A stretch of 44,868 bases of DNA from an uncultured Deinococcales bacterium. GTDB taxonomy: Bacteria > Deinococcota > Deinococci > Deinococcales > JAAFIG01. Each line of letters opens with the position of its first letter. Positions within the stretch are counted from its first letter, which is position 1. The translations under genes were made by a program, and so were the position numbers. The stretch lies in the NCBI GenBank assembly GCA_964244895.1, contig CAXTKV010000012.1:1-44868 (forward strand), written 5' to 3'. Below are positions 274-42,765 of this stretch, in pieces. Below the pieces are notes generated by a model, which had not been told where the DNA came from, did not search any database, and worked only from the letters and a program-made list of their open reading frames with translations.

Positions 274-333
274 CTCGAGAACACCGTGCTGGACGGTCTT
301 CTTGGAATGCCGAAAACACTGTGCTGGACGGTG
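274..333. repeat. Palindromic intergenic repeat, two tandem units
   Basis: CTCGAGAACACCGTGCTGGACGGTCTT and AACACTGTGCTGGACGGTG between convergent genes; abuts the stop codon at 334. Confidence 0.85.
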
Positions 334-1119
334 CTACGAACTCGCGCTGGTGTAACTGCGCACCGCGTACCGCCAGAACGCCCTCGAGACGCCCAACAGC
401 ACGGCGGCCACCGCGATCCCGGTCAAGGCGCTGGACAGGCTGACGCGCCCGAGCAGCGCCTCCGTCGGGACGGTCGTGATGAACGCCACCGGAACCACGA
501 ACGTGAACAGCAACCGCACCCAACCCGGAAAGGCCGTCACCGGGAACTGACCCGCGCGGTACAGACCCCAGAAGAGTTCCAGCGTGTTCTCCACGCGCAC
601 GAACCAGAAGGCGGTCGTGGCCAGCATGAAGCACAGCGAATACACGATCCCGAACGCGCCCAAGAGCAAAGCCGCGCCCGTCAGCGCGCCCAAAGCCGTG
701 ACCGTGTTCAGTTTGAGTCCCGCGTAAACGATCAAGCCCAGCCCGATCAGCGCGTCCGGCAACCGGAACACGTCCACCTCGCGCATGGAGACCATGAACT
801 GCGCGTCCACGGGTTTCAGGAGCGTGAAATCCATGCTGCCGGTGCGCACGCTCTCCGCGATGCGCCGCAGGTTCGGGTACACCACCATGCCCATCAGCCC
901 GTCCACCAGCGTGAACACGCCGACCAGCGCGGTCGCCTCGAGACGGCTCCAGCCGCCCAGCCCGGAACCATCGCCGAACAGCACGCTCAAGCCCAGGAGC
1001 GCGCCCGCCGAGCGCAGCAGCGATTCGAACAGGTTGACGATAAAGTTCGCGCGGTACTCGAGCCGCGCGGCGATGGAGGCGCCCGCCAGAATCCGCGCCA
1101 GCCTGACGTAACGAATCAC
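334..1119 (-). CDS. ABC-2 type permease (DUF990-like)
   Basis: About 6 TM segments, LEYRANF and GSMDFTLLKPVD motifs; in an operon with a second permease and an ATPase. Confidence 0.9.
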   Translation of the reverse strand: MIRYVRLARILAGASIAARLEYRANFIVNLFESLLRSAGALLGLSVLFGDGSGLGGWSRLEATALVGVFTLVDGLMGMVVYPNLRRIAESVRTGSMDFTLLKPVDAQFMVSMREVDVFRLPDALIGLGLIVYAGLKLNTVTALGALTGAALLLGAFGIVYSLCFMLATTAFWFVRVENTLELFWGLYRAGQFPVTAFPGWVRLLFTFVVPVAFITTVPTEALLGRVSLSSALTGIAVAAVLLGVSRAFWRYAVRSYTSASS

Positions 1120-1143
1120 GCGCTGGCCTCGGCCAGATGATAC

Positions 1144-1225
1144 GAGAACACCGTCCGGGACGCGATGCTCGAGATACCGTCCAGCACGGTGTTCTCGAGC
1201 CGAACACCGTCGAGCGCGGCTCGAG
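1144..1225. repeat. Palindromic intergenic repeat, three units inside the operon
   Basis: GAGAACACCGTCCGGGACGCG, ATACCGTCCAGCACGGTGTTCTCGAG and GAACACCGTCGAGCGCGG. Confidence 0.85.
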
Positions 1226-1255
1226 GATCAATCTCGGGCGCGGGGGTTTTCAAGA

Positions 1256-2098
1256 TCACGCGCCGACCGCCCCATATTTTTTGAGCCCAGCCCGCCACAT
1301 GATCCTGGAAATCACCCAGAACACCACCAGCCAGCCGACCAGCGCCAGCGTCACGCGCAGCACCTCCGGCCAGCTGAGCGCCCCCGTCAGCACGCGCGCC
1401 GGGTAGTAAATGATGTACGGGAACGGCGTCCACTCGATCGCGCTCCGCAACCAGGCGGGGTAAAACTCCAACGGTGCGAAGCTGCCCGCCAGGAAGGTGG
1501 CCAGCACGAAATAAAACTCGTCGAAGGCCGTGGCGTTTTCCAGCCAGAAGCACAGCATCCCGATGCAGTAACCGATCACGAACCGCACCAGGAAGGCCAG
1601 TTGGATCACGCCGATGAACGCCAGAACGTGCCAGACGCTCGGCGTCAGCACCGTGCCCGGAACCAGGAACACGCCCGCCACCACGACTGCGATCACGAAC
1701 GGACCGCGCACGAAACGTTCCGTGAAATGCTGCGCGGCGTACTCCCAGACGGGGTCGAGCGGGCGCAAGAGCTTGATCGAGAAGTTGCCCATCCGGATGG
1801 CGTAGTCCATCTCCCAGGCGACCCACACGACCGTGAACTGCTGCGACAACCAGGCCGCCAGAAAGTACGCCGCGAAATTCTGCGGCGTGAAACCCTGCAG
1901 GTTGCCGCCCGCCGCCTGCGCCTTGCCGATCCAGACGGCCATCATGATCAGCGGCAGCATCCCGACGAGCATCCAGATCACGATCTCCGCGCGGTAGATG
2001 GTCATGTGCGCCAGCCACGCGTTGAACAGCACGCGCGCCTTGCGCCAGGTGCTGGATGCTCGAGCCTGAGGGGTTGAACGCGGCTCGAGGGCGCTCAC
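1256..2098 (-). CDS. ABC-2 type permease (DUF990-like)
   Basis: TIYRAE and IRMGNFSIKLLRPL motifs, multiple TM segments; overlaps the ATPase stop. Confidence 0.9.
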   Translation of the reverse strand: MSALEPRSTPQARASSTWRKARVLFNAWLAHMTIYRAEIVIWMLVGMLPLIMMAVWIGKAQAAGGNLQGFTPQNFAAYFLAAWLSQQFTVVWVAWEMDYAIRMGNFSIKLLRPLDPVWEYAAQHFTERFVRGPFVIAVVVAGVFLVPGTVLTPSVWHVLAFIGVIQLAFLVRFVIGYCIGMLCFWLENATAFDEFYFVLATFLAGSFAPLEFYPAWLRSAIEWTPFPYIIYYPARVLTGALSWPEVLRVTLALVGWLVVFWVISRIMWRAGLKKYGAVGA

Positions 2099-3099
2099 GC
2101 CGCGACCCGTTCGGCTTCGGCGCGCGCGGCGCTCGAGGCGGCGAAGACCTGCCCGATGACTTCCTCAAGGGGTGGGTCCTCGATGGTCACGTCGGCGATG
2201 GGCAGTTCCGCCAGCAACCTGGCGCTGACCCGGCTGACCTCCAATCGCGGCACGAGCAGTTCGGCGTTCAGACCATCGAGGGATTTGACTTCCGCGTAGG
2301 TCTCGAGCACATCGCGCGCAACGGTGTGCTCGAGTTGCAGCTTGACGATCTTCTGGGTGCTCATGCGTTCCACCAGCCCGCCCAGGTCGCCATCGAACAC
2401 GATCCGGCCCTTGTCGATCACGATGATGCGTTTGCACAAGGCCGTCACGTCGGCCATGTAGTGGCTGGTCAGGATCACGGTCGCGTTGACGCGCGCGTTG
2501 TACTCGGCCACGAATTCCCGGATGCGAACCTGCATGTTGACATCCAGCCCGATGGTCGGTTCGTCCAGGAAGAGCGTGCGCGGCTTGTGCAGGAGCGCCG
2601 CCGCCAGCTCGCACTTCATGCGTTCGCCCAATGACAACTTGCGAACCTGTTTGTTCAGCACGCCGTCCAGTTCCAGGATCTCGGTGAATTCCTTCATGGT
2701 GGCTTTGAAATCCGCATCGCTGATCTCGTAGATCGCTTGATTGACCAGAAAGCTGTCCATGGCGGGCAGATCCCAGATCAGTTGCTGCTTCTGGCCCATC
2801 ACCAGCGTGATGGATCGCAAGAAATTCGTGCGCCGCTCGAAGGGCGTGAAGCCCTCGACCCGCGCCGTTCCCGCCGTGGGGTGCAACAAGCCCGAAAGCA
2901 TCTTTAGCGTGGTCGTCTTGCCCGCCCCGTTCGGCCCCAGGAAGCCCACGATCTCGCCGGGCGCGATGCTGAACGACACGCCATCCACGGCCTTGACGGT
3001 CTTGGTGCGGCGCACGAAAAAGGATTTGACGGAACCGGCGAACCCGGCGTCTTTTTCGGCGACCGTGTAGTGCTTGTGGAGGTTTTGAACGTCAATCAT
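2095..3099 (-). CDS. ABC exporter ATP-binding protein
   Basis: Walker A GPNGAGKT, LSLGE signature, LFLDEPT. Start trimmed to the ATG at 3099 (MIDVQNL). Confidence 0.93.
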   Translation of the reverse strand: MIDVQNLHKHYTVAEKDAGFAGSVKSFFVRRTKTVKAVDGVSFSIAPGEIVGFLGPNGAGKTTTLKMLSGLLHPTAGTARVEGFTPFERRTNFLRSITLVMGQKQQLIWDLPAMDSFLVNQAIYEISDADFKATMKEFTEILELDGVLNKQVRKLSLGERMKCELAAALLHKPRTLFLDEPTIGLDVNMQVRIREFVAEYNARVNATVILTSHYMADVTALCKRIIVIDKGRIVFDGDLGGLVERMSTQKIVKLQLEHTVARDVLETYAEVKSLDGLNAELLVPRLEVSRVSARLLAELPIADVTIEDPPLEEVIGQVFAASSAARAEAERVAA

Positions 3100-3185
3100 T
3101 CGTCCCGAGCGTACCCGAGTTGCGGTTTGGCGCGATATACGCACACTGGCTTGCGGCACGGGTTTCTCGAGCCTCGGGCTTTCGG

Positions 3186-3233
3186 GAACACCGTCTGGTA
3201 CACGTTTCAGGTTTTGCGTGCTGGACGGTGTTC
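3186..3233. repeat. Palindromic repeat doublet
   Basis: GAACACCGTCTGGTACACG-tttcaggttttg-CGTGCTGGACGGTGTTC. Confidence 0.9.
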
Positions 3234-3252
3234 TCGGGTGGGTCGAGTCCGC

Positions 3253-3603
3253 CTAACCCTGAGCGTGCTGGTTGATCTGCACCAGCAACCCGTCCGGGTC
3301 GCGCAGGCGGATCGAACGACCGAAGGATTCGTCCGCGATCTCGCGCTCGAGCGGAATCCGGGCGCGCCCCAGGCGCTCGGTCACGGCCTCGAGGCTTTCG
3401 TCGGTAGCGATGCAGACGTGCAACCGTTCGGGGTCGTGGGGCCGAAGGTTCTCGGTTCGGTGCAGCCCCAGGAAAGCCTCGCCGCACCAGAGTTCCGCCC
3501 ACATTCGGCTCGGCGCTCGAGGCCCGAGCTTCAGGCCGAGCGTCCGGTAGAATTCTACGGCGCGTTCCACGTCGCTGACGGACAGGATCAGTTCAACCCT
3601 CAT
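3253..3603 (-). CDS. VOC/glyoxalase family protein
   Basis: VSDVERAVEFY and FGRSIRLRDPDG motifs. Confidence 0.9.
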   Translation of the reverse strand: MRVELILSVSDVERAVEFYRTLGLKLGPRAPSRMWAELWCGEAFLGLHRTENLRPHDPERLHVCIATDESLEAVTERLGRARIPLEREIADESFGRSIRLRDPDGLLVQINQHAQG

Positions 3604-3788
3604 GATTTGCCCTTTCTGTTGGCTTTCTGCGGCGACCTGGTCTCGGGCTGCGCTGGCTCGAGGTAGGCGCGGAGGGCGCGCTCTACAAATTCAGAGAGCG
3701 AGACGCAGGCGTCAATCGCCTCGTGCTTGACCTCGATGATCAGTTCGCGCGGCAGGTAAACGTTGAATTGCTGCTTCTCGTCGGGCAT
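3600..3788 (-). CDS. Ribbon-helix-helix (CopG-like) DNA-binding protein
   Basis: QFNVYLP beta ribbon followed by two helices (SLSEFVERALRAYL); ATGA overlap with the VOC gene. Confidence 0.8.
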   Translation of the reverse strand: MPDEKQQFNVYLPRELIIEVKHEAIDACVSLSEFVERALRAYLEPAQPETRSPQKANRKGKS

Positions 3789-3855
3789 CAGGAATCATCA
3801 CACGGGTTGAAGCTGGCCTCGGACGCTCGCCGGCGCGCCTCGAGCTCTGGAATCG

Positions 3856-4422
3856 TCACTCGCGCCCTCCCGCCCGACGCAGGGTCTCGGCGATCTCGGG
3901 GTGGTTCATGGCGATGGCCACCTGAAGGGGCGTGCGGCCCCGGTGGTCGGGCGCGTTGAGGTCGCCGACGCGCGCCAGCAACCAGTCCGTCATCTCGAGA
4001 TGGTTTTTCATGACGGCGGCGTGCAGGGCGTGATCGGGCACGTCGGCGCCGTGGGCGACGATCAATTCCGCGATCTCGGGTTTGCCCGATAGGGCCGCGT
4101 GAAACATCAACGAGATCCCGTGAACGCCGGGTTTTGCGGCCAGGCCGGGATCGACCTCGAGGAAACGCCCGACCTCCTCGGTGCGGCCAAGCATCGCCGC
4201 GGCAAAAATCTGCAACGGTGCGCCCGCCTCGAGGAGCATATCGGCGATGTCTGCGCGCCCGACGTGTCCGGCGGCCTCGAGCGCCGTCTCGTCGAACCTC
4301 TGAAACGACTGGTTCAGCAACCCAGGTTCCTGCGCCAGCAGGATCTCGACTTTCTCCAGGTCGCCGTGTGCGGCGAAGACGAATTGCTCGATCAGGGCGG
4401 GGTCTACGGGTAACGTCGCCAT
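3856..4422 (-). CDS. Ankyrin repeat protein
   Basis: AAHGDLEKV, TALEAAGHVG, ALHAAV and GRTPLQVA repeats; AAGGAGG SD upstream. Confidence 0.88.
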   Translation of the reverse strand: MATLPVDPALIEQFVFAAHGDLEKVEILLAQEPGLLNQSFQRFDETALEAAGHVGRADIADMLLEAGAPLQIFAAAMLGRTEEVGRFLEVDPGLAAKPGVHGISLMFHAALSGKPEIAELIVAHGADVPDHALHAAVMKNHLEMTDWLLARVGDLNAPDHRGRTPLQVAIAMNHPEIAETLRRAGGRE

Positions 4423-4442
4423 TTCGCGCCTCCTTAAACTCT

Positions 4443-4460: not shown

Positions 4461-4521
4461 GCCGCGAATGTTCAAATCCGGTTCCTCCAGACCCAGCCCC
4501 AATGGATTCGCGAATCCCAAA

Positions 4522-4567
4522 AAGACCGTCTGGAGCGCAAATCGCGAGTGCCGTCCCGCACGGTGTT
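4522..4567. repeat. Degenerate palindromic repeat doublet
   Basis: AAGACCGTCTGGAGCGC...GCCGTCCCGCACGGTGTT. Confidence 0.7.
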
Positions 4568-4623
4568 TTCGGGCACAACCTCGGAACCTGGGCGGGCTGG
4601 TGGGCGTGTTAACCTGACAACTC

Positions 4624-6306: not shown

Positions 6307-6308
6307 AA

Positions 6309-6329
6309 AACACCGTCCAGGACGGTGTT
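6309..6329. repeat. Single perfect palindromic unit
   Basis: AACACCGTCC-A-GGACGGTGTT, 2 nt after the stop codon, between convergent genes. Confidence 0.92.
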
Positions 6330-6358
6330 CATGTCGCGCGATAAAAACTGTTTCGGCG

Positions 6359-7012: not shown

Positions 7013-7238
7013 GCACTCCTCGAGCCTTCCCTGAGTGGACGGTGCAGGAACCGGGCTGCACCGAATGGAGATCAGTATACGCTTTTCGTGATTTTCAATT
7101 CGCTGGCCTGACCAATTTGGGGCTGGACACGGTGCGAACCCAGACCATCCCGGTGGGTGAGTACGATGGGCGCATGGAGCAGGTTCAGCCCCCGAAGCGC
7201 TGGTTTTTCTCGAGCTGGCAGGCCAGAGCCTGGGGCTG

Positions 7239-7286
7239 GCCGTGCTGGACGGCGTTTGCAAAGAAAAAGCTGTCCAGTGCGCTGTT
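7239..7286. repeat. Degenerate palindromic repeat units
   Basis: GCCGT-GCTGG-ACGGCGTT followed by GCTGTCCAGTGCGCTGTT. Confidence 0.6.
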
Positions 7287-7313: not shown

Positions 7314-8333
7314 GTGATTCCCGCCAGCCTTCAGGTCGCGCTCGCGCTCGAGTCGGTCAGCTTGACGTACCCCGGTGCGAGCGGTAGGGCGGTCGATTCG
7401 GTCAGCCTGAGCCTGAACCCCGCACAGACGCTGGCGATCCTGGGGCCGTCCGGGTGCGGCAAGTCCACGCTCTTGCGGATCGCGGCGGGGCTCGAGACGC
7501 CCGACGCGGGCCGCGTGCGGATCAAAAGCCGGGATGTCACCCGAGAACCGCCGGAGCGTCGCGGGGTGGGGTTGGTGTTTCAGGATTACGCGCTCTGGGG
7601 GCAGCGGAATGTCTTCGGGAACGTGGCCTACGGGCTTGAGGAACAGCGCCTGCCGCGCCCAGAAATATCGCGCCGGGTCGAGGGGGCGCTCGAGCGCGTC
7701 AACCTGGCTGGCTACGGGTCGCGCCAGATTTCAGCCCTGTCCGGAGGTGAGCGCCAGCGCGTGGCCCTGGCCCGAGCCCTCGCGCCGGAACCGGCGTTGC
7801 TGCTGCTGGACGAACCGCTCTCCAACCTCGACGAGCGCCTTCGGGACGAACTGCGCCTCGAGTTGCGCGGGCTGTTCGGTTCGCTCGGGCTGGGCGTGGT
7901 GTTCGTCACGCACGACCAGCGCGAGGCGTTCGCGTTGTCACACCGCGTGGCCGTGATGCGCGCGGGTCGGGTCGTGCAGGTCGGCGATCCGATGGATGTT
8001 TTCGATGCGCCCGCCGATGTCTGGACGGCGCGCTTTCTGGGTCACACCAACCTGCTTTCGTCCGGTGATGCCGAGCGCCTGGGGCTGGCGTGCGCACCGG
8101 GTCAGCGCCTGCTCGTGCCGGAACGCGCCATCATCGTCCAAGACGATGATGGCGCGCTGGACGGTGCTCTCGAGGGGAACGCCACCAGCTCGATCTTCGA
8201 GGGTCGCTCGAGCCGCATCGCGTTGAACCTGCGCGGCGTCCAGCTGGAATTCGATCACCCGCGCCCGCTCGAGCCCGGTACGGTCGTCGCCGTCAGGCTC
8301 GAGACTGCGGCCATCAGGGCGGTTCCCGAATGA
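7314..8333 (+). CDS. ABC importer ATP-binding protein (ThiQ/FbpC/PotA-like) with TOBE-like C-terminus
   Basis: GPSGCGKST, VFQDYAL, LSGGERQR, LLLDEPLS; coupled to thiN. Start (GTG 7314) is approximate. Confidence 0.85.
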   Translation: MIPASLQVALALESVSLTYPGASGRAVDSVSLSLNPAQTLAILGPSGCGKSTLLRIAAGLETPDAGRVRIKSRDVTREPPERRGVGLVFQDYALWGQRNVFGNVAYGLEEQRLPRPEISRRVEGALERVNLAGYGSRQISALSGGERQRVALARALAPEPALLLLDEPLSNLDERLRDELRLELRGLFGSLGLGVVFVTHDQREAFALSHRVAVMRAGRVVQVGDPMDVFDAPADVWTARFLGHTNLLSSGDAERLGLACAPGQRLLVPERAIIVQDDDGALDGALEGNATSSIFEGRSSRIALNLRGVQLEFDHPRPLEPGTVVAVRLETAAIRAVPE

Positions 8334-9130: not shown

Positions 9131-9183
9131 GAACACCGTCCAGCACGCGTTTCCTGATATGCGTGCTGGACGGTGTTCTCGAG
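9131..9183. repeat. Canonical palindromic repeat doublet
   Basis: GAACACCGTCCAGCACGC-gtttcctgatat-GCGTGCTGGACGGTGTTC-TCGAG; perfect 18-bp arms. Confidence 0.95.
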
Positions 9184-10393: not shown

Positions 10394-10566
10394 TCCCGCC
10401 ACCTCGAGCCCGCGATTTTGTCTTCCGCTGCCCTGACGGCGGCGGCTCCGTCGGTGTCATCGGCCCGCTTTTGGCCCATCGCGGAGGGGTCGGCGTACCC
10501 CGACTCGCGCAGCAGGGGAGATGCCGTCTCGTAGCCCTTGAGAATTTCAGTGTTATTGCTTAAGAT

Positions 10567-10620
10567 CACCGTCCAGCACGCGATTCTTGGGGATCAAGAC
10601 ATTGCGTCTGGGACGGTCTT
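10567..10620. repeat. Palindromic repeat doublet
   Basis: CACCGTCCAGCACGCG...TGCGTCTGGGACGGTCTT. Confidence 0.8.
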
Positions 10621-10654
10621 CTTTTCCTGCCCGTTCCCCTGGTACGGTGAACGC

Positions 10655-11878: not shown

Positions 11879-12039
11879 GGCTGAAACCTTCATGAGCATC
11901 GTTCAGGACGCATCCGAGTCCATTCTTCGGTGCGCGTCCGGCGCGGTTGGCTGACGTTGCGCTGATCGTTATACTGACGCCAATCTCGAGCGTGATCGCT
12001 CGGGCAGCATTCGAGGGGCGAGAGGGATCTGGAGGCGAC

Positions 12040-12942: not shown

Positions 12943-12974
12943 ATCCGGCTCGGTGACTCGAGCTTGAGCCCGGT

Positions 12975-13069
12975 ACACCGTCCAGCACACGAGTTTATGA
13001 ACGCGTGCCGGACGGTGTCCGCCTCGTCGTATCTTCAAAGAACACCGTTCCAGACGCGGTTTTCTCGAG
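12975..13069. repeat. Palindromic repeat doublet plus a third unit, between phnD and phnC
   Basis: ACACCGTCCAGCACACG...CGCGTGCCGGACGGTGT and GAACACCGTTCCAGACGCG. Confidence 0.88.
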
Positions 13070-13991: not shown

Positions 13992-14049
13992 GATCCAGGG
14001 AACACCGTCCCACACGGTATTCCCTGGATCGCGTCCCGCACGGTGTTCC
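13992..14049. repeat. Palindromic repeat units between phnC and phnE
   Basis: GATCCAGGGAACACCGT-CCCAC-ACGGTATTCCCTGGATC followed by GCGTCCCGCACGGTGTTCC. Confidence 0.85.
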
Positions 14050-15921: not shown

Positions 15922-16070
15922 AGCTGCAAAGAGCGCTCAAAGTTTGCGGAAGGTATCTTCTCACGGATGCCATTCGCAACTCATTGTGTGATTCGAGATG
16001 GCCCCAGAAGACACGATTCGCCCTCGAGTGCGCCGTCCTGGATGATCCGAGATGGATAACGCGGATTGTA

Positions 16071-16088
16071 AACACCGTCCTGGACGCA
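16071..16088. repeat. Single repeat unit
   Basis: AACACCGTCCTGGACGCA. Confidence 0.75.
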
Positions 16089-16229
16089 ATACGGAACGAT
16101 TTTTCTGATGAACTCGCTCATGAAGTGACAGAATTGTGGCGCCAGGGTAACCTGACCGCCTGGGGGAGAAGCAGTGCGAAGCCGAACAATCCTGATCGTC
16201 CTGAACGCATCATCGAGGCAACCCGAAGC

Positions 16230-17555: not shown

Positions 17556-17562
17556 TTTTGAA

Positions 17563-17608
17563 AACACCGTCCAGCACGCGTTCTTGAATATGCGTGCTGG
17601 ACGGTGTT
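17563..17608. repeat. Canonical palindromic repeat doublet
   Basis: AACACCGTCCAGCACGC-gttcttgaatat-GCGTGCTGGACGGTGTT, 7 nt after the stop. Confidence 0.95.
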
Positions 17609-17709
17609 GTTGTAGATCAGCCTCGTGCCGCAAGCCGCAAGGAACAACCGATCCCGCTTGCAGCTGACGGCTCGCGGCCTGCGGTTCGAGCCGCGCGTTA
17701 AAATCCATC

Positions 17710-20346: not shown

Positions 20347-20411
20347 CAGGAATACCGTCCAGGACGCTCTTTTTTTGATCCTCGAGAAACGCGCGCTGGA
20401 CGGTATTCCTG
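20347..20411. repeat. Palindromic repeat doublet (ATACCGT variant)
   Basis: CAGGAATACCGTCCAGGACGC...GCGCGCTGGACGGTATTCCTG. Confidence 0.9.
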
Positions 20412-20526: not shown

Positions 20527-20582
20527 TCGAGTTCACCGTCCTGGACGCATTCTTGAAAACGTGTGCTGGACGGTGAACTCGA
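20527..20582. repeat. Palindromic repeat doublet (TTCACCGT variant)
   Basis: TCGAGTTCACCGTCCTGGACGC-attcttgaaaac-GTGTGCTGGACGGTGAACTCGA. Confidence 0.9.
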
Positions 20583-22255: not shown

Positions 22256-22261
22256 GAGCCG

Positions 22262-22288
22262 ACGCCGTCCAGGACGGTGTTTCTCGAG
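22262..22288. repeat. Single palindromic repeat unit
   Basis: ACGCCGTCC-A-GGACGGTGTTTCTCGAG. Confidence 0.85.
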
Positions 22289-23278: not shown

Positions 23279-23773
23279 GTGAGCCCGCAACCCGTGACAT
23301 ATTCCCCGGTCGGCGTGGTGCGTTCACCGTTCACCGACCCGGCAGGAATGCCGATCCAGTCCGCGAGCGCTTCCGGCGTCGCGGGTCGCGTCGAACTCGA
23401 GCCGGAGTTCGCGGCGGGATTGCGCGACCTGGACGGCTTCTCGCACCTGTGGTTGCTGTGCCACCTGCACCGCGTTCGGGGCTCTTCGCTCGAGGTCGTG
23501 CCGTTTCTGGACGCGGTTTCTCACGGCATTTTCGCTACGCGCAGCCCGAAACGCCCGAACCCGATCAGCCTGAGCCTGGTGCGCCTGGAAAGCATTCAGG
23601 GCACCGTCCTGCACATCTCCGAAATCGACGTGCTGGACGGCACACCCGTGCTCGACATCAAACCCTACGTGCCGCGCTTCGACGCGCGCCAGACGGATCG
23701 AATCGGCTGGTTCGCGGCGCGCCTGGATCGCCTCGAGAACACGCTGTCCGACGACCGTTTCAAGACGCCCTGA
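23279..23773 (+). CDS. trmO: TsaA/TrmO-family SAM-binding protein (m6t6A37 methyltransferase-like)
   Basis: GLRDLDGFSHLW, GIFATRSPKRPNPISLS, DVLDGTPVLDIKPY. Confidence 0.85.
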   Translation: MSPQPVTYSPVGVVRSPFTDPAGMPIQSASASGVAGRVELEPEFAAGLRDLDGFSHLWLLCHLHRVRGSSLEVVPFLDAVSHGIFATRSPKRPNPISLSLVRLESIQGTVLHISEIDVLDGTPVLDIKPYVPRFDARQTDRIGWFAARLDRLENTLSDDRFKTP

Positions 23774-24821: not shown

Positions 24822-24877
24822 CGAGAAGACCGTCTGGGGCGCGAATTAGAAAACGCGTGCTGGACGGTGTTCTCGAG
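24822..24877. repeat. Palindromic repeat doublet inside the mod operon
   Basis: CGAGAAGACCGTCTGGGGCGCG-aattagaaaa-CGCGTGCTGGACGGTGTTCTCGAG. Confidence 0.88.
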
Positions 24878-26285: not shown

Positions 26286-26329
26286 GAACACCGTCCTGGA
26301 CGCGTATTCGATCTCGCGCGCCGGGCGGT
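26286..26329. repeat. Palindromic repeat doublet (right arm degenerate)
   Basis: GAACACCGTCCTGGACGCG...CGCGCGCCGGGCGGT. Confidence 0.8.
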
Positions 26330-27345: not shown

Positions 27346-27396
27346 AGAAGACCGTCCTGAACCGTGTTCTCGAGAACGCGTCCAGGACGGTCTTCT
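27346..27396. repeat. Palindromic repeat doublet (AGACCGT variant) filling a convergent gap
   Basis: AGAAGACCGTCCTGAACCGTGTTCTCGAGAACGCGTCCAGGACGGTCTTCT, with CTCGAG at the symmetry centre. Confidence 0.9.
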
Positions 27397-28344
27397 CAGG
27401 CGGTATGCCCAGTGCGAAGCGCTCCAGCCAGATCGCGGATGTGGTCCGGGCTGGTGCGGCAGCACCCGCCGATCACGCGCGCGCCGTGCGCGTACCACGC
27501 TCGGGCTTGCGTGGTGAACGTCTCGCAACTGGACTGGCCGCTCCAGCGTTTCATGATGGCATCGTAGGTCTCGCCAGAATTTGGGTACGCCAGGATCGGC
27601 TTGTCTGTGGCGGCGCCCAGACGTGTGACCAACTCGGTCACGAATTCCGGAGCCGTGCAGTTCACGCCGACGGCGGCGACCTGCGGGTGCGACCCCAGCA
27701 GGCTCGCGCACGGGCTGATCGGCTCGCCGCGGTTGGTGTGCGCCCCATCGCGGGCGCTGAAGCTGAACCAGGCGCTGACGCCGGGGAATTCCTCCAGGAG
27801 CCGCAGCAACGCCCTCGCCTCGAGCAGGCACGGGATCGTCTCGCAGGCCAGGAGGTCGGCCCCGGACGCGGCCAGCACCGCCAGGCGCGGACGGTGAAAA
27901 TCCATCAATTCCATCTCCGTCAGGCCGTAATCGCCCCGGTACTCTGAACCATCCGCCAGGAACGCGCCGTAAGGCCCGACGGAGGCCGCCACGAACGGGC
28001 GCGAACGCCGCGCGGTTGGCGGGGTTTGCCCAGAACGCGTCCCGCGCTTCAAAGGCCAACTGCACGGAGAGCCGCATCAGTTCAGCGGCCTGCGCTGCGT
28101 CCAGTCCGCGCCGCGCGAAACCCTCGAAGCTCGCCTGGTAGCTGGCAGTCGTGGCGCAATCCGCCCCGGCGGCGAAGTAATCCGCGTGCACGTCCCGGAT
28201 CAACTCGGGCCTCTCGAGCAGCACCCGCGCGCTCCACAAGGGATCGTTCAGGTCGCAGCCGCGCCATTCGAGTTCCGTGGCCAGCGCGCCGTCCAGCACG
28301 ACCACAGCCTGATGCTCGAGGATGCTGGAAATGGGGTCAGCCAC
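27396..28344 (-). pseudogene. mmuM: Homocysteine S-methyltransferase, frameshifted near 28010
   Basis: 5' part [28 protein letters not shown] is in one frame; [37 protein letters not shown] is in another. Confidence 0.8.
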
Positions 28345-28451: not shown

Positions 28452-28512
28452 AGGAATACCGTCCGGGACGCTCCGCTTGAAGTTCTCGAGAATACCGTCC
28501 TGGACGGTATTC
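28452..28512. repeat. Two repeat units, the second a perfect 23-bp palindrome
   Basis: AGGAATACCGTCCGGGACGC and GAATACCGTCC-T-GGACGGTATTC. Confidence 0.9.
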
Positions 28513-29691: not shown

Positions 29692-29702
29692 GGCTCGATT
29701 CA

Positions 29703-29720
29703 TGCGTCCTGGACGGTGTT
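29703..29720. repeat. Single repeat unit
   Basis: TGCGTCCTGGACGGTGTT. Confidence 0.8.
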
Positions 29721-29778
29721 TCCAGGATTCGGGCGCGGTTCCTGGGAACGCTAAAGCCGATTCGGGCATACTGGTGTC

Positions 29779-30786: not shown

Positions 30787-30842
30787 TCTCGAGCAGTACC
30801 GGGTGATCTCGAGCAGTGACGGGAACACCGTCCAGGACGCGC
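30782..30842. repeat. 16-bp direct repeat followed by a palindromic repeat unit
   Basis: GGTGATCTCGAGCAGT at 30782 and 30802; GAACACCGTCCAGGACGCGC at 30823. Confidence 0.8.
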
Positions 30843-30885
30843 ACCGACTCTGGGCGTCGGCTCGCCCTTCGTCCATTCGCGCTCG

Positions 30886-31395: not shown

Positions 31396-31405
31396 AAGAA
31401 ATACG

Positions 31406-31450
31406 CACCGTCCAGCACGGTTTCTAAAGATTGCGTCTCGGACGGTGTTC
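31406..31450. repeat. Palindromic repeat doublet
   Basis: CACCGTCCAGCACGG-tttctaaagat-TGCGTCTCGGACGGTGTTC. Confidence 0.85.
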
Positions 31451-32168: not shown

Positions 32169-32218
32169 ATCTCGAGCGCTGCGAGTTTCGAGATCGCCAG
32201 ACCAATCCACACATCGTC

Positions 32219-32267
32219 GTAGGGGCGAACGTCACGCCCAAGCGTGCAGGCACGACGCGTTCGCCCT
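32219..32267 (+). repeat. GTAG-class REP hairpin
   Basis: GTAGGGGCGAACG...CGTTCGCCCT; same GTAGGGGC foot as the RAYT-linked REP. Confidence 0.65.
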
Positions 32268-32332
32268 CTCGCGGAAACGATGCCCGAGCTTCCGTCGCGA
32301 GAACAGGCTCCAGATCGATTCGCGTCTCGAGA

Positions 32333-32393
32333 GAACCGTCCCAGACGCGAAATGTTCAAACAAAAGAACACCGTCCAGGACGGTGTTCTCGAG
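32333..32393. repeat. Two repeat units, the second a perfect 25-bp palindrome
   Basis: GAACCGTCCCAGACGCG and AGAACACCGTCC-A-GGACGGTGTTCT-CGAG. Confidence 0.92.
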
Positions 32394-33674: not shown

Positions 33675-33732
33675 GAACACCGTCCCACACGCGTATTCTC
33701 GAGATAAAAGAACGCTGTCCAGCGCGGTGTTC
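33674..33732. repeat. Two repeat units
   Basis: AGAACACCGTCCCACACGCG-tattCTCGAG... and GAACGCTGTCCAGCGCGGTGTTC. Confidence 0.82.
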
Positions 33733-33739
33733 CCACGGT

Positions 33740-34210: not shown

Positions 34211-34441
34211 GCGAGCCAGTATGCCACGGCGCGGCACCCAACAAGACTCCCGCTGGCTCGAGCCGCAGGAACATATCCCGCTGTCGTTCTGAGGAACCAC
34301 GAAGCATCGTTCGCCCTCGCGCAGACGCGAAGCATCGCGCGTGCAGGTTCGCGCAGATCGAAGGGTAATGGCCGATATTTCTGGCGTCGCAGAGCGGGAT
34401 TTTTAACAGATACCCCTCACCCCGGCCCGTAAACTCGAACG

Positions 34442-36991: not shown

Positions 36992-37044
36992 GCCGCGATG
37001 CTCGAGATCGAAACCTCGCCCCTCTGAGCTCGTGAAGTGCGTGA

Positions 37045-37090
37045 AACACCGTCCAGGACGCATTCCTTAATCTGCGTGCTAGACGGTGTT
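37045..37090. repeat. Palindromic repeat doublet
   Basis: AACACCGTCCAGGACGCA-ttccttaatc-TGCGTGCTAGACGGTGTT. Confidence 0.92.
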
Positions 37091-37366
37091 CTCGATTTTT
37101 GAGCCTCGGGAAGCGCCTCTGGATCGAGTTGCTCCGACACCGGCGGGCTCGCGGCTCGAGAGACGGCGCTCTGATCACTCGGAGCTCGCGATGCCCGAGC
37201 GGCAGGTCGGCGCTACGGTCGGGTCGAGAAGCGCTCGAGTTTCCCCAAAACACAATTTATTGGGCGATCTCTGAAGGTTCGAGTACGCCGTGTCATACGG
37301 CGTACTCGAGAGACGGCCATGCTTGCAGTAAGGAAAGCGTCAGGATGCGGCTGGTATACCGAGTGA

Positions 37367-37825: not shown

Positions 37826-37832
37826 GGCTACA

Positions 37833-37888
37833 AACACCGTCCAGCAGGCGCTTTCTCGATCTCGAGAAACTGCGCGCCGGACGGTGTT
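37833..37888. repeat. Palindromic repeat doublet with a palindromic CTCGA core
   Basis: AACACCGTCCAGCAGGCG-ctttctcgatctcgagaaac-TGCGCGCCGGACGGTGTT. Confidence 0.9.
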
Positions 37889-37993
37889 CTCTGCGTCTCC
37901 CGCTGGTTTGGACGGATCGAGCGACACAGTTCGCCCACTAGACCGTGCTTCCAATAGGATTCCCGAGCGCCCGGTCTCGTTATCATCGGCCTC

Positions 37994-39157
37994 GTGACGC
38001 TGCTCGAACCCCACCATCTGAGCGAACGACAGGCGCGATTCCTGGGAATGGCGACGCGCCTGAGCGCGAATTTCGCGGCTCGAGCCGACGAGTTCGACCG
38101 TCAGAACGCTTTACCGACCGAAAGTTACGCCGAACTTCGCGCTTCCGGGTATCCCGGTTTGACCGTGCCTGAACGCTTCGGCGGCGCGGGTGCGAACCTG
38201 CTGGAATTCGTCATGGCGCAATCCAGACTGGCCGTCGGTGACGCGTCTGTGGCGCTCGCCGCAGCCATGAACGCCCACGTCATCGGCACGGCGGGCGAGG
38301 CGGGCAACTGGCCCGAAGCGCTTCTGGAGCGCATCAGCCGCGCGATTGCCGACGGCGCGCTGATCAACGCCGTCGCGTCCGAACCCGAACTCGGCAGCCC
38401 GTCCAGGGGCGGGAATTTCCGCACCGTGGCGCACAAGGTCGAGGGCGGCTGGGAACTCCACGGGCGCAAAACCTGGGCGACCGGTGGCCGGATGATCGAC
38501 TTCTGGGTGGTTCAGGCCGCGCTGGACGGCAAAAACCTGGTTTCTAACACCGGACGGCTGATCGTGGACGCCAGAACCGACGGTGTCCGGCTCGAGCAAA
38601 CCTGGACGGATGCGCTCGCCATGCGCGCCAGCGCCGCCCACGATGTCGTCTTTGAAGCCGTGTACGTGCCGGACACGGATTTCATCCCGCCGACGCCGCC
38701 CGACCCGACGGGCTCGGCCTGGTTCTGGTCGTCCATGAGCGCCACCTACCTGGGCGTGGGCATCGCCGCACTGGAAGCCATCACGAAGTACGCCCAGGAG
38801 CGCGTGCCGACCGCCCTGGGGAAACCGATCGCGACCCTTGGGGGCGTGCAAGAAAAAATCGGCGCGATGGAACTGACGCTGAAAGCCGCCCAGACCGTGC
38901 TCTTCGAGGCCGCCGCGCGCTGGTCTGAGGGTCTCGAGCCCAAAGAATCCCTGCTGCCCCTGCTGGCCGGAGCCAAGCACCTGTGCACCAACGCCGCGAT
39001 TCACGCCACCGACCTGGGATTGCGCGCGGCGGGCGGCGGTTCCTTGACGCGCGCCCTGTCCCTCGAGCGGCACTTCCGCGATGCCCGCGCGGGGCTGGCG
39101 CACCCGCCATCGGACGAACTGGCCCTGCAGATGATCGGCAAATCCAGGCTCGAGTAA
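37994..39157 (+). CDS. Acyl-CoA dehydrogenase family protein
   Basis: VPERFGGAG, ASEPELGSPSRGG, GRKTWATG, LERHFRDAR. Confidence 0.9.
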   Translation: MTLLEPHHLSERQARFLGMATRLSANFAARADEFDRQNALPTESYAELRASGYPGLTVPERFGGAGANLLEFVMAQSRLAVGDASVALAAAMNAHVIGTAGEAGNWPEALLERISRAIADGALINAVASEPELGSPSRGGNFRTVAHKVEGGWELHGRKTWATGGRMIDFWVVQAALDGKNLVSNTGRLIVDARTDGVRLEQTWTDALAMRASAAHDVVFEAVYVPDTDFIPPTPPDPTGSAWFWSSMSATYLGVGIAALEAITKYAQERVPTALGKPIATLGGVQEKIGAMELTLKAAQTVLFEAAARWSEGLEPKESLLPLLAGAKHLCTNAAIHATDLGLRAAGGGSLTRALSLERHFRDARAGLAHPPSDELALQMIGKSRLE

Positions 39158-39201
39158 CACCGTCCAGCACATGAATCTTGAGATGCGTCCTGGACGGTGT
39201 T
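39156..39201. repeat. Palindromic repeat doublet overlapping the TAA stop
   Basis: (T)AACACCGTCCAGCACA-tgaatcttgaga-TGCGTCCTGGACGGTGTT. Confidence 0.92.
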
Positions 39202-39247
39202 CTCGTGCGACCGATCCTTTTGGTCGGCTCGGTAGAATGCCAGCACC

Positions 39248-40618
39248 ATGAACCTCGAGATCGAGACATTTGAACGCGACTGGGACGTGATCGTGATCGG
39301 CGGCGGAACCTCCGGCAGCATCGCCGGCATCGCCGCCTCCAGAGCGGGCGCGAGGACGCTCGCAATCGAACAATTCGGCAGCCTGGGCGGAACCGGAACC
39401 AACGCGCAGGTCACGCCGTTGATGCGCAACGTGTCAAACGGCGTGAACCTGAACCGGGGCATCACCGACGACCTGAAAAACCGCTTGTGCCAACGCGGGG
39501 ACGGCGCCATCGACAAGAACGGCAACGACAACTGGTTCAACCCCGAAGGCATGAAATTCGTGCTGGAGAGGATGCTCATCGAGGCGGGCGGGGAAGTGCT
39601 GTACCACACGCACTTCGTCGCACCGGAACTCGAGGACGGGCGCATCGAGGGCGCGATCGTTCACAACAAGGACGGACTGACGCGCTTGAGGGCGCACACG
39701 TTTATCGACGCCACCGGAGACGCGGACGTGGCCGTGCGCTCCGGCGTGCCCTTCGATGCCGGAGACGCCCAGACCGGACTGCACCAGGCCATGAGCCTGC
39801 GCTTCACGATGGGCGGCGTGAACCTGACGCGATTGTGCGAATTTTTAACGCGCCACGGCCAATGGCAGGAAAGCGAACGCTTCATGCACTTCTGGATGGT
39901 CTGGGACAAGAAATCCACGCTCGAGCCGCTGTTCAAAAAAGGCGTGCAGGACGGACTGCTGCTCGAACGCGACGGCGATTACTTCCAGGGCTTCAGCGTG
40001 CCCGGACAACCCGGCGCGATCTCCTTTAACTGCCCCAGACTGGACGCCGAGATCAACGACGGCGCGGACGCCTGGACGCTTTCCAGGGCGCAAATCGACG
40101 GCAAGCTCGCCATCGACCGCCTGCTGCGCTTCCTGCGCGCCAGCTTCGAGGGCTGCGAGGACGCCTTCATCAGCACCTACGCCCCGATGGTCGGCGTGCG
40201 CGAGACGCGGCGCATTCGCGGTGAGTACACCCTGACGCTCGAGGACATCCTCGAATGCCGCACCTTCCCGGACGCCATCTGCCGCAACCACTACCCGGTG
40301 GACATTCACACGCCGCGCGGCCAGAAGCTCGTTCACGAACGCGAAGGCGCGTACCCGTACTTCGCGCCCGACGCGTACCACGAGATTCCCTACCGCTGCA
40401 TCATCCCTGTCGGCATCACCAACCTGCTCGTGCCGGGACGCGCCGCGTCATCCACCTTCGAAGCCCAGAGCGCCATCCGCGTCCAACAGAACTGCCACAG
40501 CATGGGCGAAGCGGCGGGACTGGCGGCGGCCTGGTGCGCCAGCCGAAACGCGGGAACTCGAGAGATAGACGGAACCGAATTGCGGGAGGCGTTGAAAAAA
40601 CAGGGCGCGTACCTGTGA
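39248..40618 (+). CDS. FAD-dependent oxidoreductase (FAD_oxidored type)
   Basis: DVIVIGGGTSG, IDATGDAD, GVRETRRI, IPYRC..NLLVPGR. Confidence 0.9.
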   Translation: MNLEIETFERDWDVIVIGGGTSGSIAGIAASRAGARTLAIEQFGSLGGTGTNAQVTPLMRNVSNGVNLNRGITDDLKNRLCQRGDGAIDKNGNDNWFNPEGMKFVLERMLIEAGGEVLYHTHFVAPELEDGRIEGAIVHNKDGLTRLRAHTFIDATGDADVAVRSGVPFDAGDAQTGLHQAMSLRFTMGGVNLTRLCEFLTRHGQWQESERFMHFWMVWDKKSTLEPLFKKGVQDGLLLERDGDYFQGFSVPGQPGAISFNCPRLDAEINDGADAWTLSRAQIDGKLAIDRLLRFLRASFEGCEDAFISTYAPMVGVRETRRIRGEYTLTLEDILECRTFPDAICRNHYPVDIHTPRGQKLVHEREGAYPYFAPDAYHEIPYRCIIPVGITNLLVPGRAASSTFEAQSAIRVQQNCHSMGEAAGLAAAWCASRNAGTREIDGTELREALKKQGAYL

Positions 40619-40634
40619 CGGGTGATGGCGAGGG

Positions 40635-40661
40635 AAGGGCACCCACAAGGGGTGCCCCTAC
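40635..40661 (-). repeat. GTAG-class REP immediately upstream of the RAYT
   Basis: Reverse complement GTAGGGGCACCCCTTGTGGGTGCCCTT. Confidence 0.92.
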
Positions 40662-40663
40662 AG

Positions 40664-41188
40664 ATGGGATTTGATGCTTCAAAGCATCGCAGGCGTTCGA
40701 TCCGCCTCGCTGGGCACGACTATGCGCAGAATGGAGCGTATTTCGTGACGATCTGTGTAAACGGGCGGTTGCCTCTGTTCGGTGAAATTCATGATGGCGA
40801 GATGCATCTGAACGATGCAGGACGGATGCTCGAGACCCAGTGGAACGCTTTGCCCGAGAGATTTCCGAATATTGAACCTGACGTTTTCATCGCGATGCCC
40901 AACCACCTTCACGGCATCTTATTTCTCGTAGGGGCACCCCTTGTGGGTGCCCTTTCCGCCGCCCAGCCTGAATTGGGCGATGTGGTCGGAGCCTTTAAAT
41001 CCTTAACGACGAATGCTTACATCCACGGCGTCAAAAACCTCGCCTGGATGCCCTTTGAGACGCGCCTGTGGCAACGCAATTATTTTGAACGCGTGATCCG
41101 TTCCGATCGCGAATTGCTGGACACGCGCGAGTACATCCTGGGGAACCCGGTACGCTGGGAATCCGACGAGGAGAACCCAAACCGATGA
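40664..41188 (+). mobile_element. REP-associated tyrosine transposase (RAYT; IS200/IS605 Y1 HUH family)
   Basis: RRSIRL..HDY...GAYFVTIC, MPNHLH (HUH), FKS, WQRNYFERVIR, EYILGNP (catalytic Tyr); visibly lower GC than its neighbours. Confidence 0.92.
40928..40954 (+). repeat. Identical REP copy in frame within the RAYT gene
   Basis: GTAGGGGCACCCCTTGTGGGTGCCCTT encodes VGAPLVGAL just after the HUH strand. Confidence 0.92.
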
Positions 41189-42705
41189 AACGCGTTCTGT
41201 TCTTGCCGTGCGACACCCGCCCGCCGACCCTGGAGTACGTGCATCAGCTCGCGCGGGTGGCGGGGCTCGAGATGCGTTCGCCGCCGTTGGCGATGCTGAA
41301 CCACCTGAACGAACCGGGCAACATTCCTGGGATCGCGCAGTGGTTGCGGCAGAACGCGGCGTGGGCGGACGTGGCGATCATCACGCTCGAGACGCTGACG
41401 CTGGGCGGGATGATCCCGGCGCGGCGCGTGTCGGACAGTCTCGAAGATGCGCTGGCGCGCCTGGAGATTCTGAGCGAGTTGCGGCGCATCAACCCGAAAT
41501 TGCGAATTCTGGCGTACGGCGTGATCGTTCGTGTGGCGCACGACAACGATCCGTTGGAGGAAAAACCGTATTACGGTGAGCACGGCGCGGGTTTGCGGAA
41601 GGTTTCCGAGTGGATCGACCGGGTGGAACGCGGCGAGGATCCAGAGCAGTTCGCGATGGCGAAACGGGCCGTGCCGGACGATATTCTGGAAGATTGGTTG
41701 GGCACGCGAGAGCGCAATCACGCGATTCATCTGGCGGCGCTCGAGATGCTCAAAGAGGGCACTTTAGAGCATCTGTGTTTAACGCTGGATGACACGACGC
41801 CGTATGGATTGGCAGCTCGGGATCGGCGTCGTCTGGAAGCCCGGATCGACGCGTTGGGCGTGTGGGACAGGGCGGACGTGTATCCCGGCGCGGACGAGGT
41901 GGCGGCGGTTTTGCTGGCTCGAGCCATCGTCAACGATGGTCGGCGAAAGCCGAAAGTCTGGGTGCGGTACCCGTCCACATTGGCGGAATCCGCCGCGATG
42001 CTCTACGAGGACAGGCCGCTCGGGGAGTTGGTCAAGGCGCACCTGCGCGCGGCGGGCTGCGTTCCGGCGTCCAGGCTGACGACCGCCGATCTGGTGCTGG
42101 CCGTCAACGCACCCGCCATCAAGCAGGCGCACCGCCAGCCGGATTTCGAGCTGGTGGACACGGCCAGCCGCCACCTGCCGGAGTTCATCGAGCGCATTCA
42201 GGATGACCTGGAGGCCGAGCGCGCCGTCGCCATCGCGGATGTGGCCTACGCCAACGGCGCGGAGAACCGCTTCACGAAGCTCTTGCTCGAGAATATTGAC
42301 GCGACCAAACTCGCCGGGTACGGCGCGTGGAACACGGCGGGCAACACGCTGGGCGGTGCCATCGCATCCGGCGTGATCGCGCTGTCTGCCACCGATCCGT
42401 TGGCGCTCCTCGAGGCGAACTTTTCCAGGCTGGTGGACGACTGGTTGTACCAGGGGCGGGTGCGCGGTGAGGTTCGCGAATTCCTCGGGAATCCCAGCCC
42501 GTTCGATCTGGGCGAGTTGCGACCCCGAGCGGAAGCCGAGATCACCTCGAGAATTACGCCTCTGGCACGAGATTTATGGGATATGCACTTCGCGCCGCGC
42601 GTACCGGACGTGCGCCTGGAATGGGGCAAGCCGCACCTGTCCTGGCCGCGCTTGTTCACCGGTGTTTTCCCGTTGAAGCTCGTTCAAAACGCGAAGAACG
42701 CCTGA
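41185..42705 (+). CDS. DUF4127 family protein
   Basis: LPCDTRP, GGMIPARR, LTLDDT, YPGADE, ADVAYANGA, YGAWNTAGNTLG, DDWLYQ, WPRLF. Confidence 0.8.
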   Translation: MKRVLFLPCDTRPPTLEYVHQLARVAGLEMRSPPLAMLNHLNEPGNIPGIAQWLRQNAAWADVAIITLETLTLGGMIPARRVSDSLEDALARLEILSELRRINPKLRILAYGVIVRVAHDNDPLEEKPYYGEHGAGLRKVSEWIDRVERGEDPEQFAMAKRAVPDDILEDWLGTRERNHAIHLAALEMLKEGTLEHLCLTLDDTTPYGLAARDRRRLEARIDALGVWDRADVYPGADEVAAVLLARAIVNDGRRKPKVWVRYPSTLAESAAMLYEDRPLGELVKAHLRAAGCVPASRLTTADLVLAVNAPAIKQAHRQPDFELVDTASRHLPEFIERIQDDLEAERAVAIADVAYANGAENRFTKLLLENIDATKLAGYGAWNTAGNTLGGAIASGVIALSATDPLALLEANFSRLVDDWLYQGRVRGEVREFLGNPSPFDLGELRPRAEAEITSRITPLARDLWDMHFAPRVPDVRLEWGKPHLSWPRLFTGVFPLKLVQNAKNA

Positions 42706-42715
42706 GGCGAACCCA

Positions 42716-42765
42716 GGAACACCGTCCAGCACGCATTTCCTGATTTGCGCGCTGGACGGTGTTCC
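42716..42765. repeat. Canonical palindromic repeat doublet
   Basis: GGAACACCGTCCAGCACGCA-tttcctgatt-TGCGCGCTGGACGGTGTTCC. Confidence 0.95.

Follow-up and report, generated by a model that had tools for sequence, protein, structure and literature searches.

The DNA analysed here in full (the window) is a 44,868-nucleotide contig, CAXTKV010000012.1 of assembly GCA_964244895.1, from an uncultured Deinococcales bacterium. It is contig C12 of a genome, G000, that comprises 5.12 Mb in 328 contigs and is 91% complete. The gene content of the window is ordinary, consisting of transport and metabolic genes, and these are accompanied by a dense family of short palindromic units, many of them joined into inverted pairs. 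The family is real and apparently undescribed, and it lies between the repetitive extragenic palindromic (REP) or bacterial interspersed mosaic element (BIME) repeats and the uptake sequences. Among the explanations considered, the one that we find most probable, albeit tentatively, is that the sites form a putative docking lattice for a dimer-of-dimers protein that wraps DNA.

A preliminary description of the window had listed 28 positions of the repeat, and each of the 28 carries a unit or a pair. The core ACCGT-N5-ACG matches 46 times in the window, against 1.88 ± 1.28 matches expected by chance (100 dinucleotide shuffles, maximum 5). The strict unit proposed earlier, AACACCGT-N5-ACG(G/C), fits 21 of the 28 loci, but the remaining seven (7239, 10567, 20347, 20527, 27346, 28452 and 37833) have variant arms. 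Similarly, the inverted doublets exist, but their reported length of 46–65 bp is not a continuum and resolves into two spacing classes: the 28 loci comprise 12 pairs with unit centres 25–26 bp apart, 7 pairs at 35–36 bp, 2 triplets, 2 symmetric singles and 5 half units. The perfect 21–25 bp palindrome had been given as the alternative to the doublet; near-perfect singles are rare, however, and the window has only that at 6308–6330. One intergenic unit (11894) and five weak in-gene matches had been overlooked.

Pairs with a centre spacing of 25 bp lie at 3186–3233, 4521–4568 (in a divergent gap), 9131–9178 (near-consensus, with an RNA fold of −39.3 kcal/mol), 17562–17609 (starting 6 bp past the upstream stop codon), 20531–20578 (of the rare class with CTCGAG on both sides), 24825–24872, 31403–31450, 37044–37091, 39155–39202 and 42717–42764. 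The pair at 39155–39202 overlaps the TAA stop codon of an acyl-CoA dehydrogenase gene, in a gap of 93 bp that measures 26 bp in the orthologue of relative G003. A spacing of 26 bp is found at 14000–14048 and at 27347–27395, where the pair occupies a 56-bp convergent gap. The wider class is represented at 35 bp by 279–336 (convergent gap), 10564–10621, 32331–32388, 33675–33732 and 37832–37889, and at 36 bp by 20350–20408, which shares its convergent gap with the pair at 20531–20578, and 28454–28512, in a divergent gap. The triplets span 1146–1224 (spacings of 26 and 30 bp, in a gap of 145 bp against 11 bp in the orthologous gap of relative G006) and 12973–13062 (25 and 42 bp). The near-palindromic single at 6308–6330 lies in a convergent gap and overlaps the stop codon of the upstream gene; the other symmetric single is at 22260–22282. 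Half units are found on the plus strand at 16070–16092, 26286–26308 and 30823–30845, and on the minus strand at 7235–7257 and 29699–29721, with degenerate partners downstream of those at 7235–7257 and 26286–26308; the overlooked intergenic half unit, 11894–11916, is on the plus strand. The weak in-gene matches, namely a pair at 8129–8169 with a non-canonical spacing of 18 bp and units at 23599, 32831, 34660 and 41664, are doubtful members. Contigs of run X2 contain a relative at approximately 91% identity, in which three of the window loci (28454–28512, 33675–33732 and 37832–37889) align through and one (32331–32388) has the stretch replaced (134 versus 163 letters). The locus at 37832–37889 falls inside a gap-free aligned piece, so the length of this stretch has been kept at that identity.

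The density seen in the window extends across the genome, as does the predicted copy number in the thousands. A genome-wide profile search returned 6,531 half-site matches, compared with 50 on the reversed sequence, and these group into 5,116 units and 3,132 loci, of which 1,732 are inverted pairs; the median over contigs longer than 15 kb is 6.6 loci per 10 kb. The word CACCGT-N5-ACG occurs 2,954 times (control 32) but at most 179 times in any of 60 relatives. Lineage specificity, likewise surmised earlier, is borne out by a strict 24–26 bp pair pattern with 511 copies here: among 363 other genomes of the phylum it is absent from 360 and occurs once in each of 3, and all 18 relatives of the same family have none. 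No pairs were found in 111 genomes of the largest genus of the phylum, and the small repeats of Deinococcus radiodurans were set apart by pattern only. In the X2 relative, the same halves are joined by different fillers, which shows that the family is not an assembly artefact. Among the joints listed for the X runs, where relatives were represented by contigs only, no clean skip of a pair was seen, and a sample of approximately 230 kb from 8 relatives contained no similarly dense repeat. An exact 18-mer search over 29 of 64 parts of a sequence collection gave at least 27 single, scattered matches in unrelated genomes; viral contigs contained no pairs and about 130 single 16-mers, the number expected by chance; plasmid sequences had no match to the family; and metagenomic relatives found through DegV (32–55% identity) had 0–2 profile matches per locus across 26 loci. 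No Rfam family matches in the window at the gathering score, and no description of the family was found in the literature searched, mostly papers outside subscription journals, in keeping with the initial failure to recognise it as a described family.

Each unit is a 21–25 bp dyad in which CGT and ACG flank a five-base centre, with A/T tracts 9–12 bp from the centre. In pairs, the outer arms are full and the inner arms are shortened. Centre spacing is 24–27 bp in 960 and 34–37 bp in 714 of the 1,732 pairs (1,674 canonical pairs), and an unthresholded partner search around 4,373 strong intergenic anchors placed partners mainly at +25 (1,480), +26 (218), +35 (909) and +36 (330), with minor classes at 30/31 and 41/42. 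Members of a 41-bp subclass (C111:3813, C127:3813, C170:1310 and about 20 more) have different outer arms and an extra A-tract 22–25 bp outside each unit, and may represent a distinct binding geometry. The fillers are near-random and AT-rich and differ while their length stays fixed, so that 1,729 of the 1,732 pairs are unique in sequence. The 16-bp arms are perfect in 144 of 1,724 pairs and have at least three mismatches in 1,073 (62%). Among the positions listed, covariation is limited to few positions, mainly in the 25-bp class (loop positions 0 and +2, z 8.2 and 7.4), and is almost lacking in the 35-bp class; at inner positions +7 to +9 complementarity is below chance. Median RNA folds of the two classes are −27 and −24 kcal/mol. 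The lack of a GTAG foot and of a U-tail, both reported from the window, holds genome-wide: an unpaired 5′ GT(A/G)G tag at the hairpin foot is absent from the column profiles of all classes, and at least six T within 10 nt, on either side, occur in 45 of 600 pairs (19 of the first 300 short and 26 of the first 300 long pairs), which is not the make-up of intrinsic terminators. The features of CGTC REPs are also missing, since CGTC sits inside the paired stem, neither terminal nor unpaired, and a CCA tail was not seen. Four-base direct repeats at offsets 9–18 are as frequent as after shuffled pairing (1,728 pairs, 10 offsets), which gives no indication of a target-site duplication; there was no signal of filler captured from the host and no in-situ symmetrisation of the flanks.

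The placement of the sites is strongly non-random. By our own gene calls, 42 of 1,674 canonical pairs lie inside genes and 2,432 of 2,658 strong loci (91%) are intergenic. Among gaps longer than 60 bp, 75–87% of the convergent and 8–69% of the divergent ones are occupied, the median distance to the stop codon is 8 bp in convergent gaps (nearer stop) and 22 bp in tandem gaps, and the elements frequently abut or overlap stop codons. No orientation bias was found relative to transcription or along contigs (neighbours alike in 158 of 299 and 91 of 167 cases). The sites are also spaced more evenly than chance allows, with a mean spacing of 1.64 kb and a coefficient of variation of 0.64, against 1.28 ± 0.025 when loci are placed at random within the same non-coding DNA. 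In 354 tandem gaps of 250–400 bp on 215 core contigs, 0, 1 and 2 loci occur in 49, 280 and 25 gaps, respectively, with approximately 208 single-locus gaps expected. Occupancy of tandem gaps of 80–250 bp rises from 0.46 to 0.83 as the flanking genes lengthen. Inside genes, strong sites number 20–39 per Mb at less than 750 bp from an intergenic site and 107–181 per Mb beyond 1 kb (n = 144, p 7e-13; gap-free alignments, n = 37, p 0.007), while neither weak sites nor CTCGAG show a trend with this distance. The neutral in-gene level is about 4–12 per Mb, and the density near a site is not lower, which argues for a positive force that fades within about 1 kb rather than for mere purging.

Outside each unit, A+T content oscillates for 50–60 bp with a fitted period of 11.1–11.6 bp, and flank G+C peaks at +24 and +36/37, the positions where a partner unit sits. 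The rhythm is absent around composition-matched control anchors (slope 0.05 ± 0.04 in non-coding and −0.10 in coding DNA), and decayed third units were ruled out as its source, because 3,343 of 3,441 flanks keep it. It continues into coding DNA at all three codon positions, where it was compared with orthologues drawn from 2.42 of the 5.09 Mb of G006 and from short stretches of further relatives, with an identity of about 65%. Over aligned coding flanks of 496 element ends, the slope is 0.55 ± 0.13 here and 0.11 ± 0.13 in the orthologues; the corresponding values are 1.05 versus −0.17 at differing bases and 0.79 versus −0.18 at third codon positions. Pure target choice predicts equal strength at shared and differing bases, and was rejected (bootstrap P 0.008, 570 ends), beta being 1.85 ± 0.77 at the former and 4.62 ± 0.92 at the latter. 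BIMEs are protein docking sites and BIME-2 elements are gyrase sites, and the strong gyrase site has a 10.75-bp GC rhythm 20–66 bp around the cleavage centre (PMC6379681). A gyrase site was considered for the present flanks and rejected: the extent is similar, but the period is 11.1–11.6 bp and the phase departs from that of the E. coli motif beyond 40 bp, the correlation being 0.49 at 17–40 bp and −0.38 at 40–65 bp; the best value is 0.46 at a shift of +3 bp, and 0.64 is reached only after 6% stretching. The genome as a whole has an AA/TT periodicity of 11.2–11.3 bp, with roughly double the strength found in the G006 sample, also when the elements are masked.

Comparison of in-gene sites with their orthologues suggests that two origins operate, in-frame insertion and in-place gain without an alignment gap. 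Half of the in-gene pairs with an aligned orthologue (8 of 16) lie at gaps of at least 4 residues and half (8 of 16) do not, and 47 of 50 strong single in-gene units are aligned without a gap of that size; 14 more strong loci fall outside the alignments, and most in-gene loci have no sampled orthologue. Where coding DNA aligns free of gaps (1.29 Mb), this genome has 33 units of at least 16 bits, compared with 5 in the orthologues and 11–12 in synonymous shuffles, and the counts of canonically spaced partners are 11 versus 0–2. Amino-acid identity is 0.38 inside the units gained in place, compared with 0.58 in their blocks. Whole pairs were also noticed within three conserved protein genes (C80:1859–4261, C61:5586–6539 and C289:3–2234), two of them without alignment gaps and one with a 17-residue in-frame insertion. 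Between genes, gaps that bear pairs exceed their orthologous gaps by a median of 67 bp (n = 91) and other gaps by 0 (n = 144). Nevertheless, among the genome's own gaps of 120–200 bp, empty ones are enlarged by 55 bp (n = 28) and filled ones by 52 bp (n = 46), and the gaps of this genome are enlarged generally; gap length therefore supports insertion only weakly. Near-identical neighbours in the 25-bp class number 113 within 4 mismatches, against 70 for half-swapped and 52 for Markov controls, and three identical pairs were found in unrelated flanks.

The window also encodes a REP-associated tyrosine transposase (RAYT) at 40622–41188 (+). It matches NF047646 with an E-value of 6e-14, below the cut-off, has the HuH and Y-NP motifs and is of subclass-2.4 type; Pfam PF01797 missed it, while a motif scan and NCBIfam found it, and it is the only copy detected in the assembly. 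The gene is wedged without intergenic space between FAD oxidoreductase and DUF4127 genes, and is flanked and interrupted by unrelated GTAG REPs at 40629–40661 (−) and 40929–40953 (+), with a GTAG REP in frame. These REPs belong to a family of their own, with about 250 tags genome-wide (for example, window 32217–32266), several sequence types and identical copies; relatives G002 and G005 have it too, as does run X2. The nearest intergenic pair units are at 39202 and 42717, none being within 1.4 kb, and RAYT homologues are present in 16 of the 18 family relatives, which lack pairs. Having its own REPs and homologues in pair-less genomes, the RAYT is unlikely to be the cause of the pairs. No other mobilising candidate emerged from the assembly, in which the 11 tyrosine recombinase matches were counted only, and IS110 had no match; transposase-like fragments on C5 and C15, recognised by eye, lie in site-poor DNA. 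The genes with the most flanking units look ordinary by sequence.

Taken together, fixed lengths with free fillers, the 10-bp step between spacing classes, a flank phasing altered in this lineage, the gain of sites in place and saturation at the kilobase scale point to a protein acting on double-stranded DNA. Of the three options raised in the preliminary description (a non-autonomous element, a protein-binding site or an RNA structure), this evidence favours the second. In the docking reading, a putative sequence-specific protein would bind a pair as two dimers, each palindrome being read by one dimer, and the 10-bp step would hold both in one rotational register. The protein would wrap some 50–60 bp on the outer side of each unit and would act locally on the chromosome, organising or relaxing it, and the flank rhythm would be the footprint of the wrapped DNA, imposed after the sites arose through selection or a mutational imprint. 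If the benefit of one site reaches about 1 kb, new sites would arise chiefly in stretches that lack a nearby one. Copying or insertion may have founded the family, as the in-frame insertions and enlarged gaps suggest, and point change or patch conversion may now also add sites in place; the bias towards gene 3′ ends and convergent gaps would mark where a site of 50–60 bp is tolerated. We hold with still more reserve the fuller proposal that about 2,500 helically phased bipartite sites, one per 1.6 kb, position a nucleosome-like wrapping complex, and that selection for coverage writes sites into genes and rephases adjoining codons.

Several observations weigh against a docking lattice. The orthologue tests rest on partial sequence of relatives and on our own gene calls, and at second codon positions the rhythm is 0.29 ± 0.24 here and 0.46 ± 0.23 in the orthologues, so that part of it may predate the sites. 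The period of the rhythm equals that of AA/TT genome-wide, and with zero shift, centred on the unit, the E. coli gyrase motif correlates with the flanks at r 0.11. Nineteen of 221 contigs longer than 8 kb (337 kb, accessory-looking) are nearly site-free while still carrying CTCGAG at 1.6–6.7 per kb, and the sites are thus not indispensable per kilobase. Absence of the strict pairs from all 18 family relatives is odd for a housekeeping role. No cognate binding protein was found in the assembly, no gene stood out by its flanking units, and paralogue clustering revealed no expanded transposase. HU/IHF genes are present in ordinary copy number (3 matches, as in several relatives); IHF is known to bind BIME-1. 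The unassembled 9% of the genome may contain the cognate gene; the assembly lacks even the gene for ribosomal protein S10. Finally, saturation and in-place gain are equally predicted by a bias in uptake or transfer.

According to that alternative, which we regard as somewhat unlikely, the sites would serve, as do the DNA uptake sequence (DUS) and the uptake signal sequence (USS), as a signal for uptake (or donation) that molecular drive has propagated: cells would preferentially import and recombine fragments with a pair until most fragments have a site, and phased bendable flanks would be favoured by the uptake machinery. The even fragment-scale spacing, the core bias and the in-place gain within genes that it predicts are all observed. 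As with DUS and USS, there are thousands of lineage-specific copies (PMC2397512, PMC3458573), and the mean spacing resembles that of composite DUS in meningococci, which lie 1.5 kb apart (PMC2397512). DUS are found at coding positions that tolerate them, are missing from genes of recent acquisition and originate in situ (PMC2397512), which is matched by the depleted accessory contigs and the low amino-acid identity inside in-place units, and the phased A/T tracts recall the helically phased T-tracts of USS (PMC3458573). ComEC, ComEA-type HhH and DprA matches are present in the genome, but competence genes occur in 10–11 of 14 control genomes and do not discriminate. The cores of DUS and USS are non-palindromic. 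Moreover, both suffice as a single copy (PMC2397512, PMC3458573) and 34–42% of DUS lie in genes (PMC2397512), whereas the present sites are 91% intergenic, and their dyad unit, bipartite build at a strict 10-bp helical step and two-sided 50–60 bp rhythm have no counterpart in the excerpts of these papers. We prefer an intracellular docking lattice on account of the dyad structure of the unit and of a long footprint that extends to both sides. Descent from a REPIN-like non-autonomous element without a GTAG foot may explain how the family began; as an account of the whole family, with the HUH transposase lost or in the unassembled 9% and even spacing due to target immunity or loss of close copies, it is unlikely. 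Much of the anatomy supports it, since REPINs and their RAYTs, described by Bertels and Rainey in 2011, provide short imperfect palindromes in mostly intergenic inverted pairs, with discrete spacings, unique spacers and symmetric singlets formed by central deletion (PMC3116915, PMC3337134), and GTAG and CGTC REPs, as well as E. coli BIMEs, share the dimers, the 3′-end bias, the preference for convergent and tandem gaps and the habit of abutting or supplying stop codons (PMC3733652). The in-gene pairs at alignment gaps, the longer pair-bearing gaps and the modest excess of near-identical neighbours also agree with insertion, and an assembly that lacks even S10 could lack a transposase. In contrast, the sole RAYT has its own GTAG REPs and occurs in relatives without pairs, no 4-bp target duplication was found at any of 10 offsets, the gap-length evidence is confounded by equally enlarged empty gaps, and insertion leaves the gap-free in-gene gain unexplained. 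REPIN doublets are spread randomly, have spacers that fold back and number 431 pairs in SBW25 (PMC3116915, PMC3337134), whereas the 1,732 pairs here are under-dispersed, have phased flanks and inner complementarity below chance, and have neither an adjacent cognate RAYT nor a fold-back filler. A non-autonomous element thus stands in its anatomy and in some in-frame insertions, but not in transposase, target duplication or spread. CGTC REPs are distinguished by a terminal unpaired CGTC, an 8–9 bp stem starting from A/T pairs, a 4–5 nt loop and a CCA tail (PMC3733652), and BIME-2 by the gyrase phase discussed above (PMC6379681).

RNA hairpins at transcript 3′ ends, selected as terminators or exonuclease barriers, are a very improbable primary cause, although a secondary RNA role is likely for some copies. 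The fold energies, the proximity to stop codons, the filling of 75–87% of convergent gaps and the covariation of loop positions 0 and +2 in the 25-bp class speak for hairpins, but loops give no reason for a 10-bp step, 62% of pairs have at least three arm mismatches, the 35-bp class hardly covaries at the positions listed, and there is neither a U-tail nor a strand bias; mid-gene sites and the flank rhythm would also go unexplained. The RNA structure of the preliminary description is therefore disfavoured as the origin of the family. Least probable of all, to the point of being nearly discounted, is an SDR5-like module inserted into CTCGAG by site-specific recombination. The idea draws on cyanobacteria, where SDR5 inserts into the palindrome HIP1 (PMC4390886, PMC5861425), and on a genome that here too is saturated with a palindromic word, CTCGAG occurring 21,883 times (4.3 per kb, against 0.5–2.5 per kb for cyanobacterial HIPs; PMC4390886) and lying at a constant distance beyond 448 of the 3,463 pair ends, with 53 expected from independent columns. 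The end counts largely refute it: CTCGAG on both ends is found in 13 pairs against 29 expected, and because two-sided copies are rarer than chance, SDR5-type insertion is rejected. The arm GAG is completed to CTCGAG at a rate of 0.43, compared with 0.27–0.33 in other non-coding DNA, so that the link between word and element looks secondary. The word itself is family-wide, at about 4.3–6.8 per kb in all 19 family genomes versus at most about 2.9 per kb in 22 others, and all 18 relatives have it at higher density than here with no pairs, the repeat being found in one genus only.

Nucleoid-organising sites such as parS, matS and the SlmA sites number in the tens. To our knowledge, driven motifs with thousands of copies are known mainly from two proteobacterial families, as uptake signals. 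The site described here is bipartite and phased, it fills an entire chromosome to saturation, and its imprint on adjoining codons can be measured. If docking is correct, this would be a bacterium with a sequence-positioned, nucleosome-like organiser; if uptake is, an uptake or donation signal of new build in another phylum. In either case, the family is well suited to asking why REP-like repeats are maintained, and the 25/35 versus 30 bp geometry lends itself readily to direct tests. The present analysis contributes the tests for saturation, the comparison of the flank rhythm with orthologues and the arguments that set the RAYT aside.

Some further observations concern the rest of the window and genome. 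The site-poor contigs C5, C15, C36, C50, C55, C122 and C130 carry, by eye, transposase-like fragments, integrases, an apparent type I-C CRISPR-Cas set and restriction or BREX-like genes, and a gene cluster is duplicated between C5 and C130. CGGCCG (30 sites) and CCCGGG (60 sites) are strongly avoided in this 63% G+C genome, which suggests restriction systems; a crude motif scan detected no methyltransferase matching CTCGAG. The window stretch 34295–34355 has 59 bp here and 134 bp in the X2 relative and retains an apparent remnant of a GTAG REP arm, and the difference may be a REP polymorphism. At 27396–28344 (−), homocysteine S-methyltransferase matches fall in two frames (profile positions 1–90 and 91–282), and the gene thus looks frameshifted or misassembled.

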